Shown: in pieces, positions 23,020-39,351 of the stretch
Layout: each line of letters starts with the position of its first letter
Numbering within the stretch: position 1 is the stretch's first letter
Source: Kordia sp. TARA_039_SRF
Lineage (GTDB): Bacteria > Bacteroidota > Bacteroidia > Flavobacteriales > Flavobacteriaceae
NCBI GenBank assembly: GCA_006383075.2
Contig: SMNH02000006.1
Span: 122,174 to 186,173, forward strand
Direction: 5' to 3'
DNA: 64,000 bases
Made by a program: the position numbers and the translations under genes
The notes under the pieces: model-generated
Database searches by the model: none
What the model saw: the letters and a program-made list of their open reading frames with translations, nothing else
Told to the model about the DNA's origin: nothing

Positions 23020-23025
23020 GTTTTG

Positions 23026-23050
23026 CATCTCGACTGCGCTCGATGTGACA
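23026..23050 (-). repeat. TGTC..TCGAGCGCAGTCGAGATG palindromic repeat (family D)
   Basis: Similar copies at 31400-31424 (-), 39193-39217 (+) and 50377-50401 (+). Confidence 0.8.
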
Positions 23051-25226: not shown

Positions 25227-25985
25227 ATGAAAATAGTCATATCTCCTGCAAAATCTCTAGATTTAGAAAGTAGTCTTCCAACCCAAAAACACACAGAAGC
25301 TTGTTTTTTGAAAGAAGCAGAACGATTGAATAAAATTTTAAAGAAAAAATCGCGCAAGCAATTGTCAAACTTGATGAGCATTTCGGATTCTTTGGCAGAT
25401 TTAAACTATCAACGAAATCAAGAATGGGAATTGCCGTTTACTACTGAAAATGCGCGTCCGAGTATTTACACGTTTAGTGGGCAAGTGTTTCAAGGACTAG
25501 ATGCGTTTACACTTCCAGAAGATAAAATTGATACACTTCAAAACACGTTGCGCATTCTTTCAGGGCAATATGGATTGTTGAAACCGTTGGATTTGATGCA
25601 ACCGTATCGTTTGGAAATGGGCACAAAATTACCTGTTGGAAAAAATAAAAATCTCTACGAATTCTGGAAAAAGAAAATCACGACGCAATTGAATGACGAA
25701 TTAGAAGATGATGAATTATTTGTGAATTTAGCCAGCAACGAATATTACAAAGCAGTTGATTCCAAAACATTGAAAGTTCCGGTCATTACGCCTGTTTTCA
25801 AAGATTTTAAAAATGGAAAGTACAAAACCATCATGACCTATGCGAAATTGGCAAGAGGTTACATGACGCGCTATATTATTGAAAAAGACGCTAAAACACT
25901 CGACGATTTAAAAGGATTCGATTACGAAGGTTATGGCTACAGCGAAGAACTTTCAAACGGTAACGAATTGGTGTTTACGCGTTAA
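25227..25985 (+). CDS. yaaA: Peroxide stress protein YaaA
   Basis: [41 protein letters not shown]. Confidence 0.95.
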
Positions 25986-26692
25986 TGTTTTTTCACAAGC
26001 ACCCATACGCACCATTTATTCACAACGATACTGAAAAACTCATTGTAGGAACCTTGCCGCCTCCGCGATTTTCTACGGGCGATTTGCTCGAAAAAGATGT
26101 GGATTTCTGCTATGGAAGTTATTACAATTCGCTGTGGTTGTTTTTGGATAAAATTTACGATTTGAACTTACGCTACGACAATTCGCAAGAAGCGATTAAT
26201 CAGCGAAAAAGCTTTTTAATACAGCATAAAATTGGCGTTTGTGACATTGTAGATAGCTGCGAACGTGAAAAAATTGATGCTTCCGATTTAGGCATGCAAA
26301 ACATACAATTGCGCGATGTTATTAGTTATTTGCAACAATATCCGAGCATTCACACCATATTATTTACAGGCGGAAACTCCAAAAACGGACCAGAATATTT
26401 CTTCCGAAGACACATCAAACAATACAACTTAAAATTAGAAGTCGTTTCGGATGAAGTTCCAAGAATCCACCAATTTGATTTGAGTTTAGTTGATAAAACA
26501 CGTCATGCTGAACTTGATTCAGCATCACATCTAAGTTCAACACGAATTATCAAAACCGTTTCTTTAACGTCATCTTCTGGCGCAGCCAATCGCGCTATTG
26601 GAAGCATTCCACTTTATAAAAAGCTAAAAAAACAAAACCCGAAATTCACAACTTTTGACTTTCGGGTTTTGCAGTATAAGGAGTTTTTTTAG
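25985..26692 (+). CDS. Uracil-DNA glycosylase superfamily protein with an internal REP-derived segment
   Basis: HPY.PF, LIVGTLPP, FCYG, ILFTG motifs; TAATG overlap with yaaA. Confidence 0.75.
   Translation: MFFHKHPYAPFIHNDTEKLIVGTLPPPRFSTGDLLEKDVDFCYGSYYNSLWLFLDKIYDLNLRYDNSQEAINQRKSFLIQHKIGVCDIVDSCEREKIDASDLGMQNIQLRDVISYLQQYPSIHTILFTGGNSKNGPEYFFRRHIKQYNLKLEVVSDEVPRIHQFDLSLVDKTRHAELDSASHLSSTRIIKTVSLTSSSGAANRAIGSIPLYKKLKKQNPKFTTFDFRVLQYKEFF
26501..26526 (+). repeat. CGTCATGCTGAACTTGATTCAGCATC palindrome (family B), in frame inside the CDS
   Basis: Identical 26-mer at 31364-31389; variant at 28806-28830. Confidence 0.9.
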
Positions 26693-30959: not shown

Positions 30960-30969
30960 AGTCTTTCTG

Positions 30970-30987
30970 TTCCCGCGCAGGCGGGAA
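30970..30987. repeat. TTCCCGC-GCAG-GCGGGAA palindrome (family E) in the trpF-trpB spacer
   Basis: Same architecture as GTCATTCCTGCGAAGGCAGGAATC at 32574-32597. Confidence 0.75.
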
Positions 30988-30992
30988 TCTTT

Positions 30993-31706
30993 TTATTTCT
31001 TGATAATTGTCTCTTTAAATACTTTCAAATCTTCAATATTCTTCAATCCCGGAACGATTTCAAATTTACTATTTACATCCAAAGCATAACAATATGTTGA
31101 TGCGTTACTTTTTACAAAATCATTCAATTTTGTGATGGTTTCCAAACCAATGCCGCCACTGAGAAAAAAAGGTTTGGTAGACGGATAGTGTTCCAATACT
31201 TTCCAATCAAACGTCACGCCGTTTCCGCCAGGTAATTTCCCTTTCGTATCAAACAAAAAATAGTCAACAAAAGGCTCATACGGTTTCAAAACTTCAAAGT
31301 CAAACGTATCTTTTATTGAAAATACTTTGATAATTTCAATTGGCGCAACGTGCAAATTGAAATCGTCATGCTGAACTTGATTCAGCATCTCATCATGAGC
31401 ATTTCGACTGCGCTCGATACGACATCTTTCTTTTAATTCTTTACAAAATGCGAAACTTTCATTGCCGTGCAATTGAATCGCTTGCAAATCATGTAATTGT
31501 ATTTTTTGCATGATGTCATCCAAAGAACTATTCACAAAAACACCAGTTTTCTTAATGTCTTGAGGAATTTTTGGAATTACAGAATCAAAAAAACGAGATG
31601 ATTTTCTGTAAAATATAAAGCCCAAATAATCTGGCTGCAATTCACTTACAGCATTGATATTGTCTTCGTATTTCATTCCGCATATTTTGAGTTTCAAGTT
31701 TTTCAT
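30993..31706 (-). CDS. trpF: Phosphoribosylanthranilate isomerase with a ~28-aa repeat-derived insertion
   Basis: KICGM, DYLGFIF, QLHGNES, LFDT, GGNG..FDW, LSGGIG, LDVNSKFE; 237 aa, longer than the ~205-210 aa I recall as typical. Confidence 0.95.
   Translation of the reverse strand: MKNLKLKICGMKYEDNINAVSELQPDYLGFIFYRKSSRFFDSVIPKIPQDIKKTGVFVNSSLDDIMQKIQLHDLQAIQLHGNESFAFCKELKERCRIERSRNAHDEMLNQVQHDDFNLHVAPIEIIKVFSIKDTFDFEVLKPYEPFVDYFLFDTKGKLPGGNGVTFDWKVLEHYPSTKPFFLSGGIGLETITKLNDFVKSNASTYCYALDVNSKFEIVPGLKNIEDLKVFKETIIKK
31364..31424. repeat. Family B and family D palindromes in frame inside trpF
   Basis: 31364-31390 CGTCATGCTGAACTTGATTCAGCATCT; 31400-31424 CATTTCGACTGCGCTCGATACGACA. Confidence 0.9.
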
Positions 31707-32535: not shown

Positions 32536-32573
32536 CTCAATATTTCTTTTTGTCGTTCCTGCATTTCTTTTTT

Positions 32574-32597
32574 GTCATTCCTGCGAAGGCAGGAATC
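32574..32597 (+). repeat. GTCATTCCTGCGAAGGCAGGAATC palindrome (family E) in the trpD-trpC spacer
   Basis: ATTCCTGC/GCAGGAAT stem; variants at 30970, 37563-37608, 39289 and 39334. Confidence 0.8.
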
Positions 32598-32668
32598 TAT
32601 TTTCTCTTTTTGTGTGATGCTGAATCAATACCCAACCAAATTGAGCATAAGGTTTTGCATGATGATAA

Positions 32669-36085: not shown

Positions 36086-36124
36086 AAAAAAAAGAAGACT
36101 TGTCGTGATTGACAAGTCTTCTTT
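36086..36124 (-). terminator. trp attenuator terminator
   Basis: Minus strand GAAGACTTGTC-AATCAC-GACAAGTCTTC followed by a long T run; an antiterminator partner TCGTGA..AAGTC overlaps the trpL stop. Confidence 0.9.
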
Positions 36125-36156
36125 GATATCTATTATTTATAAATAGGGGACTTTCC

Positions 36157-36213
36157 TCACGATTTTGAAGTTCGTAAGTTCCACCACCAAGTATTTACAA
36201 AATTAGTTTTCAT
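36157..36213 (-). CDS. trpL: trp operon leader peptide MKTNFVNTWWWNLRTSKS
   Basis: 18-aa ORF with three consecutive TGG codons between a -7 promoter and the attenuator hairpin; not in the ORF track. Confidence 0.92.
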   Translation of the reverse strand: MKTNFVNTWWWNLRTSKS

Positions 36214-36230
36214 TATCTTTTTGTGTTGCA

Positions 36231-36238
36231 CAAATATA
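36231..36238 (-). promoter_or_regulatory. -7 promoter element of the trp operon
   Basis: TATATTTG on the minus strand, 17 nt before the trpL ATG. Confidence 0.75.
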
Positions 36239-39192: not shown

Positions 39193-39351
39193 TGTCAGTT
39201 AGAGCGCAGTCGAAAACAGCTGAGAAACGAAGATTTTGATAGTTTGATGATATCCGATTTTCTAACAAAACAAAAGTAATTCAATGTGATTCCTGCTTTC
39301 GTAGGAATTTGAAAATGTAGTGTTAGTATGAGGTTCCCGTTTTCACGGGAA
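39193..39351. repeat. Palindromic repeats between DUF1800 and DUF1501
   Basis: Family D variant at 39193-39217; family E-like ATTCCTGC..GTAGGAAT at 39289-39308 and TTCCCGT..ACGGGAA at 39334-39351. Confidence 0.7.

Follow-up and report, generated by a model that had tools for sequence, protein, structure and literature searches.

A probable case of a tolerated, translated dimer of short palindromic repeats in a TIM-barrel loop of TrpF from Kordia sp. TARA_039_SRF

The classic case of short palindromic repeats translated within genes is that of the Rickettsia palindromic elements (RPEs; Ogata et al. 2000), and repetitive extragenic palindromic (REP) sequences lying in frame inside open reading frames (ORFs) have likewise been published (Di Nocera, De Gregorio and Rocco 2013, PMC3733652). 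In this work we analyzed an in-frame insert in trpF, the phosphoribosylanthranilate isomerase (PRAI) gene of Kordia sp. TARA_039_SRF. The window, that is, the whole stretch of DNA analyzed, has 64,000 nucleotides of contig SMNH02000006.1, and its positions are used throughout; the genome around it (G000) has 4.59 Mb in 27 contigs with 35.8% G+C. To judge from its sequence, the insert is probably a tolerated, translated dimer of two REP families, called B and D below, i.e., selfish or structured DNA in a loop of an enzyme that keeps working.

A CGTC REP is defined by a CGTC tag, with TGTC or CCTC as permitted variants, a stem of 8–9 bp beginning A-T, a loop of 4–5 nt, and a CCA-like tail (PMC3733652). 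CGTC repeats are listed in Bacteroidetes and have no known dedicated transposase. Over half of the REP inserts within ORFs are dimers, encoding 20–30 residues, and recB of two Xanthomonas species carries different REPs at about the same site. The tail-to-tail arrangement is rare for these elements, and RPE-4 and RPE-6 are themselves CGTC REPs (PMC3733652). The RPEs (Ogata et al. 2000, as cited in PMC3733652) are palindromic inserts that remain in frame, leave the gene functional, and add a peptide at the protein surface. In the REPIN/RAYT systems and bacterial interspersed mosaic elements (BIMEs) of gamma-proteobacteria, the unit is an inverted REP doublet. The trpF insert and its parts are as follows.

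30993..31706, minus strand: trpF (phosphoribosylanthranilate isomerase), 237 aa, from the ORF list, the precomputed PF00697 match, and Foldseek; sole match in the genome
31341..31427, minus strand: in-frame insert of 29 codons, R94-P122, RCRIERSRNAHDEMLNQVQHDDFNLHVAP, between FCKELKE and IEIIKVF
31399..31424, minus strand: D element, TGTC tag and core (TGTCGTATCGAGCGCAGTCGAAATGC), translated C-R-I-E-R-S-R-N-A
31364..31392, plus strand: B element, CGTC ATGCTGAA CTTGA TTCAGCAT C TCA, antisense to trpF, giving the peptide (D)EMLNQVQHD
31333..31363, no strand assigned: third hairpin, arms 31333-31341 and 31355-31363
31341..31394, minus strand: 54-nt (18-codon) unit of B and hairpin 3, carried by 7 of 19 Kordia genomes, absent from 12

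The insert reported by the first-pass annotation is real, and its span of 31342-31428 was off by one base. It adds 28 residues to the minimal 25-residue QLHG..KVF segment of 31 other genera. Read along the coding strand, the insert consists of TGTC-D-tail, tail-B-GACG, and then 23 nt (ATTTCAATTTGCACGTTGCGCCA) belonging to neither the B nor the D family. D and B form a tail-to-tail heterodimer with the tags facing outward, which agrees with their earlier description as oppositely tagged. The first 9–13 nt of ATTTCAATTTGCACGTTGCGCCA repeat the downstream native IEII codons in inverted form; therefore, the region folds into three adjacent predicted hairpins (z = −2.2 as RNA and −2.8 as DNA), in line with the proposal of hairpins in the mid-operon mRNA. 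In hairpin 3 (9–13 bp), one arm consists of the native beta5 (IEII) codons, and the other arm and the loop are insert-specific. This third, locus-specific hairpin had been overlooked. The two repeats are present as described, and the second piece is the 54-nt unit rather than B alone.

Hairpin 3 had no further copy anywhere in the genome, and a tag-adjoining hairpin was found at just 6 of 128 tagged B-like REPs; its interpretation as a dispersed element was rejected on these grounds. It may have arisen as a template-switch copy of the flank, or it may be what is left of a third element. The 54-nt unit is flanked by at most 1–3 nt of microhomology (tgc). With units of 25–30 nt, the repeats do not show the features of miniature inverted-repeat transposable elements (terminal inverted repeats of 15–30 bp, target-site duplication, length of 70–300 bp). 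No Rfam family was found over the insert, where all matches were at chance level (E > 3). A similar D-B tail-to-tail dimer with a like spacer was observed in another Kordia genome, in surroundings that look non-coding.

The statement that the segment is repeat-derived holds, as both parts match dispersed families nearly base for base. The nearest copies in the window are as follows.

23025..23049, plus strand: D copy, intergenic, immediately 3' of a stop codon
50378..50402, minus strand: D copy, intergenic
26500..26526, plus strand: in-frame B copy, peptide RHAELDSAS, in a DNA-deoxyinosine-glycosylase-like gene (25985-26692)

The D 25-mer (31399-31423) showed 3 mismatches to each of the relatives at 23025 and 50378, where 0 were expected in shuffles. 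At 39193, the remaining relative named earlier, only the tag and the 12-nt GAGCGCAGTCGA core were in common with the trpF element. The B 27-mer (31363-31389) differed by 1 mismatch from the copy at 26500-26526 (0 expected).

Genome-wide, B-like hairpins (8-bp stem, ≤1 mismatch, CTYGA loop) numbered 159, with a CGTC tag in 111 of them, as in the trpF copy, and TGTC in 17. A C-NCA tail (C-TCA, C-CCA, or C-ACA) was observed in 114 of the 159. The B stems, A[AT]N6, covary with compensatory changes (ATGCTGAA, AAGCTGAA, ATTCTGAA, AAACCGAA, and others) around CTTGA or CTCGA loops, and the exact B 25-mer GTCATGCTGAACTTGATTCAGCATC occurs 11 times in G000. D-like copies numbered 82, and the TGTC tag of about 65 was always on the same side of the core. 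The D stem is a 4-bp covarying NATY/RATN pair around the conserved 12-nt GAGCGCAGTCGA core, which permits alternative 4-bp pairings. Tag counts in the genome and in shuffled sequence were 161 and 41 for CGTC, 166 and 56 for TGTC, and 82 and 66 for GTAG, respectively. When genes were predicted by a simple caller (3579 genes, 86% coding), 141 of the 159 B-like hairpins and 75 of the 82 D-like copies were intergenic, compared with an expectation of 12%; 84% of random 25-mers fell in coding sequence.

B agrees with the CGTC REPs of PMC3733652 in its tag, its 8-bp stem starting A-T, its 5-nt loop, its CCA-like tail, and its dispersed, mostly extragenic copies. The high copy number and the presence of several families in one genome are further points of likeness. 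D, in contrast, has a non-standard geometry with its 4-bp covarying stem around a 12-nt core. The Kordia pair is also a tail-to-tail heterodimer, and the insert contains an extra non-REP hairpin that uses native codons.

Like an RPE, the trpF insert is an in-frame palindrome in a gene under purifying selection, and the likeness is one of mode, not of sequence or lineage. RPE-1 units are much longer than the 25–30 nt of the Kordia units, and the RPE hosts are obligate intracellular alphaproteobacteria, whereas Kordia is a free-living marine flavobacterium. Only about 8 genes are affected in the Kordia genome. Genuine in-frame REP copies were few, and trpF was the sole gene with two. The others were in the deoxyinosine-glycosylase-like gene (TIGR04274 at 47.7 bits, below the cut-off, and no Pfam match), LeuRS, 3-hydroxyacyl-CoA dehydrogenase, an RND pump, HisA, and methylmalonyl-CoA mutase. 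HisA (G000 C4:201158-201913, beyond the window) is also a (beta-alpha)8 phosphoribosyl isomerase, and its D-derived segment VTSNAVEKS directly precedes a beta strand (IKLIASGG). In the 3-hydroxyacyl-CoA dehydrogenase, the REP lies between two C-terminal domains.

The claim of an open frame, intact catalytic residues, and a complete operon was borne out. The trp operon is complete on the minus strand in the order trpE-G-D-C-F-B-A (36077-28922, window ORF list), with a leader RNA in front of it.

36111..36233, minus strand: Bacteroid-trp leader RNA, 5' of trpE (Rfam RF01692; 56.7 bits, gathering score 49)

No second trpF match was found in the genome. The catalytic residues of the PRAI (beta-alpha)8 fold are the Cys of beta1 and the Asp of beta6. 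In 75 homologues, C9 was near-invariant and D153 invariant, and both are kept here. Across the seven Kordia species with the complete insert, the reading frame was open in every case, and omega was 0.12 outside the insert (dS 0.5–1.4) and about 0.5 inside it. The value of 0.12 indicates that trpF is under strong purifying selection while carrying the insert. NCBIfam equivalog scores were below the cut-offs (124 against 216 bits); the insert splits the match. With its catalytic residues, its single copy, its leader-controlled intact operon, and its low omega, the enzyme looks functional.

Foldseek gave T. maritima PRAI (1dl3/1lbm/1nsj) as the best match, with a target TM of 0.81–0.83. An AlphaFold model built with the 75 homologues had a mean pLDDT of 88.8 and a pTM of 0.86, and its barrel was confident. 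Helix alpha4 is modelled over residues 85–109 and passes through the D-encoded part with falling confidence. Residues 110–122 are disordered (pLDDT <60 over 101–122 and <50 at 112–118), and beta5 follows at 124–131. The model and the PRAI structural matches place the insert in the alpha4-beta5 loop, on the N-terminal face of the barrel and opposite the catalytic face, which is consistent with the alpha-beta loop first proposed. Compared with T. maritima PRAI (1NSJ/1LBM), which has the same (beta-alpha)8 barrel, catalytic Cys and Asp, and trp operon context, Kordia TrpF has 29 extra residues between alpha4 and beta5.

Loop alleles were tabulated for 19 Kordia genomes (G000–G018) and are listed below.

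G000, G002, G018, G015, G017, G014: tag, D1 core, and 54-nt unit
G010: tag-less D and 54-nt unit
G004, G003, G005: forward D only
G006, G011, G012, G013, G009, G007: reversed D only, with ISTPLNA in place of IERSRNA
G001, G008, G016: decayed D

D or a recognisable remnant of it was present at the trpF loop in 19 of 19 genomes, in either orientation. Alleles that lack the unit measured 27 or 33 nt, and those that carry it 81 or 87 nt, corresponding to an indel of 54 nt. Carriers of the unit were scattered on the trpC-F-B, gyrB, and rpoB trees, on which the species tree was poorly resolved (several nodes had support <70). The well-supported tight clade of G005, G014, and G009 held three different loop states, and G005 shared its left flank and tag-less D with G010, not with its sister G014. 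Alleles have probably recombined between Kordia species.

The elements of G005 and G006 are exact reverse complements of each other (24/24), and in G007 the TGTCAC tag was kept on the left and the core was flipped. For these reasons, inversion of D in place between its palindromic arms is the simplest reading. Independent insertions of a reverse-tagged subfamily were considered for the flipped D and set aside: a tag adjoining a flipped core occurred in 0 copies in G000. In other Kordia genomes the CGGAG-core subfamily was abundant and a few copies were tagged at both ends. Because this subfamily is abundant in the genomes with flipped D, re-insertion or conversion may be an alternative. CGGAG-core D had 9–33 copies in G009, G012, G005, G011, G007, G006, and G013, whose trpF has the CGGAG core, and 1–4 copies in G000, G002, G015, G018, and G004, whose trpF has the CGCAG core. 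Either common ancestry or conversion of the trpF copy by the dominant subfamily of the genome would account for this pattern.

Mean pairwise divergence among carriers was 0.36 for the hairpin-3 part and 0.35 for third codon positions elsewhere in trpF. The corresponding values were 0.10 for the B core, 0.14 for the D core, and 0.18 for an average 25-nt coding window. As the hairpin-3 part is as diverged as neutral sites, the 54-nt unit is old. Recent recombinational spread as the sole cause of its patchy distribution was rejected on the same divergence. The unit was probably already present in the ancestor of crown Kordia and then lost on at least four or five occasions; since the tree is poorly resolved and recombination likely, this order is based on parsimony and on the hairpin-3 divergence. 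The earlier statement that two insertions were tolerated agrees with a gene that looks functional, and it was too simple about the events, as D is genus-wide and flipped in places and the unit was probably ancestral and then lost.

The same loop was inspected in a one-genome-per-genus sample of 150 Flavobacteriaceae, in 111 of which it was readable. The QLHG..KVF segment had a modal length of 25 residues (31 genera), reached ≥36 residues in 19 genera, and measured 53 in insert-bearing Kordia. Relatives with zero, one, and two elements at this site, which the first-pass annotation had suggested looking for, were all found. Intact tagged REPs were present in 8 other genera; at least 5 additional genera held recognisable dimers of further REP families, or decayed copies, for a probable total of about 13. 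Examples are given below.

G104 loop: CGTC-ATGCTGAA REP and an inverted REP, peptide RHAELDSAS...LKQFQID
G123 loop: single forward B
G086 loop: at least 3 elements in a 66-residue segment
G146 loop: another REP with a D-like element nested in its loop
G132 loop: D-D dimer

REP hits occurred at 2.1 per kb in the loop, compared with 0.12 per kb in the remaining trpF. On the TrpF tree, minimal 25-residue and occupied loops were interleaved among close genera, and the left junction of the loop REPs shifted by one to three codons; both results speak for repeated independent entry. Forward copies were all read as RH/CH and inverted copies all as ...LNQVQHD, which are the stop-free frames of B (sequence read by eye). 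The B 25-mer GTCATGCTGAACTTGATTCAGCATC was found with ≤1 mismatch in 35 of 151 genera, with CTTGT as the commonest loop, and the TrpF proteins of these genera were just ~50–65% identical. Across Flavobacteriaceae, one REP sequence type is therefore conserved or shared.

The trp operons of loop-occupied genera are rich in REPs. The closest relatives of the loop dimers of G104, G086, and G146 were 0.5–1.7 kb away in the same trp operon. In the window, two operon spacers (30960-30992 and 32536-32668) contain the following REPs.

30966..30990, no strand assigned: REP-like palindrome TTCCCGCGCAGGCGGGAA in the trpF-trpB spacer
32573..32598, plus strand: TGTC-tagged REP (TGTC ATTCCTGC GAAG GCAGGAAT C) in the trpD-trpC spacer

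The REP set of these two spacers differed in nearly every Kordia species (L001–L021), and differences between the species extended to almost all spacers of the operon. In an operon spacer of G014, a D element was nested within the loop of another REP. An extra small ORF began at the trpF stop codon in G017, G009, G007, and G012. In G086 (L106, G086:C1), a stop-free REP dimer in the trpF-trpB spacer gave a 675-aa ORF in which TrpF and TrpB are fused through a linker encoded by the REPs (RSVITTRESDEVISS...SRNDEKENN). The homologous dimer of G146 has stops and the genes are separate, and G104 showed a direct fusion without a REP.

One RAYT gene was found in the genome (NF047646, 100.9 bits; 181 aa, HUH motif HLH; L031 = G000 C5:263006-266242), and this single copy is a point of likeness with the REPIN/RAYT systems. 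On either side of it, in direct orientation, lies AGTTGGAGCGAGTTTGCAACTCGTTCCAACT, of which the genome has these 2 copies and none elsewhere, and a TGTC-tagged CGAGTT/AACTCG hairpin lies 3' of its stop codon. The flanking hairpins are neither B nor D, and the RAYT was rejected as the mobiliser of B or D. Unlike the REPIN/RAYT systems, the Kordia tags are CGTC/TGTC and not GTAG. No DUF559 nuclease gene was found in the genome.

Taking these results together, we consider it likely that the insert is a REP dimer that TrpF tolerates and translates. Translation would use one of the few frames in which the repeats have no stop codon, and the insert would extend helix alpha4 and add a disordered surface loop to an enzyme that keeps working. 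D would predate the radiation of Kordia, with in-place inversion in some lineages. The 54-nt unit would be old too, and its repeated losses would be in-frame deletions. In other genera of the Flavobacteriaceae, other REPs would have occupied the trpF loop independently. The recurrence may reflect a site that attracts REPs, or one of the very few places in the operon where an insertion is harmless.

Several points weigh against this explanation. The species tree of Kordia is poorly resolved and inter-species recombination likely, which bears on the order of events. No mobilising enzyme was linked to B or D in the genome, whose lone RAYT has other hairpins at its flanks. The in-gene B and D cores (0.10 and 0.14) lie far below the neutral 0.35, which is not what a purely neutral passenger predicts. 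Such core conservation requires gene conversion from other copies, selection at the DNA or RNA level, or selection on the peptide.

A more far-reaching version, which we regard as possible though on balance doubtful, is that the alpha4-beta5 codons of trpF are a preferred REP "nest" across Flavobacteriaceae, with entry, nesting, flipping, and deletion of different REP families, and with cores held near consensus by gene conversion or by DNA- or RNA-level selection. If this were true, REP population dynamics, and perhaps a cis function, would act inside a translated enzyme gene, which would not be carrying a mere decaying passenger.

It is rather unlikely that the hairpins are retained as cis-acting DNA or RNA elements in mid-operon with the peptide as a by-product. 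Their proposed roles are an exonuclease barrier or processing site that sets how much trpEGDC message there is relative to trpFBA message, pausing of translation ahead of beta5, or binding of a REP-recognising protein. The divergence of the REP cores (0.10–0.14) compared with the adjoining non-REP part (0.36) and third positions (0.35) is in favor of such a role, as is a synonymous divergence that was lower in the insert than in the rest of the gene for most pairs. The three predicted hairpins with their z values of −2.2 (RNA) and −2.8 (DNA), the loop REPs of many genera, and the REP-rich trp operon spacers point the same way, and Di Nocera et al. argue that many REPs work as RNA elements (PMC3733652). 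However, B-stem substitutions were uncompensated in 4 of 7 alleles (L002, L004, L006, and L007), which argues against strong selection for pairing, and 12 of 19 Kordia genomes and most genera lack the unit. Unrelated REP types, singles, dimers, and decayed remnants, differing by genus, indicate turnover rather than a conserved device, and no Rfam family matches the region. Gene conversion from dozens of identical copies would account for the core conservation equally well.

Recruitment of the peptide as a new surface on the N-terminal face, e.g., one that mediates oligomerisation or docking to a further Trp enzyme, is very improbable. T. maritima PRAI dimerises through the N-terminal face of its barrel, the omega of the insert is about 0.5 and not 1, and the D part was modelled as a continuation of alpha4, all of which would suit such a role. 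Against it, pLDDT is <60 over residues 101–122, the peptide is wholly different between genera and flips between IERSRNA and ISTPLNA within Kordia, and it is absent from most relatives. An insert-inactivated pseudogene, or an ancestral loop unrelated to the repeats, for which the sub-threshold NCBIfam scores (124 against 216 bits) might speak, is already contradicted by the omega of 0.12 across seven carriers, the open frames, the kept catalytic residues, the lack of a second trpF in the genome, the nearly base-for-base match to dispersed repeat families, and the 31 genera with a minimal loop in which the segment is missing.

In-frame REPs, dimers of 20–30 residues, and differing REPs at one gene site are already published (PMC3733652), and therefore the trpF dimer, which we take as a tolerated and translated REP pair, extends the known picture and does not change it. 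What goes beyond that picture is that one TIM-barrel loop is occupied recurrently in many genera, that D was probably inverted in place, and that REP cores in a translated gene stay near consensus; in-place inversion and in-gene core conservation are not described in PMC3733652. At this locus, one can follow base by base how the protein sequence of a core biosynthetic enzyme is created and remodelled by short palindromic repeats in a free-living bacterium. The 19 congeners and about 110 other genera form a natural series of empty, single, dimer, nested, flipped, decayed, and deleted states. From it, rates of REP gain, loss, inversion, and homogenisation can be estimated and the insertion tolerance of TIM-barrel alpha-beta loops tested. 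Simple neutral decay does not explain the recurrent use of the loop and the conservation of the in-gene cores, which could indicate targeting or gene conversion.

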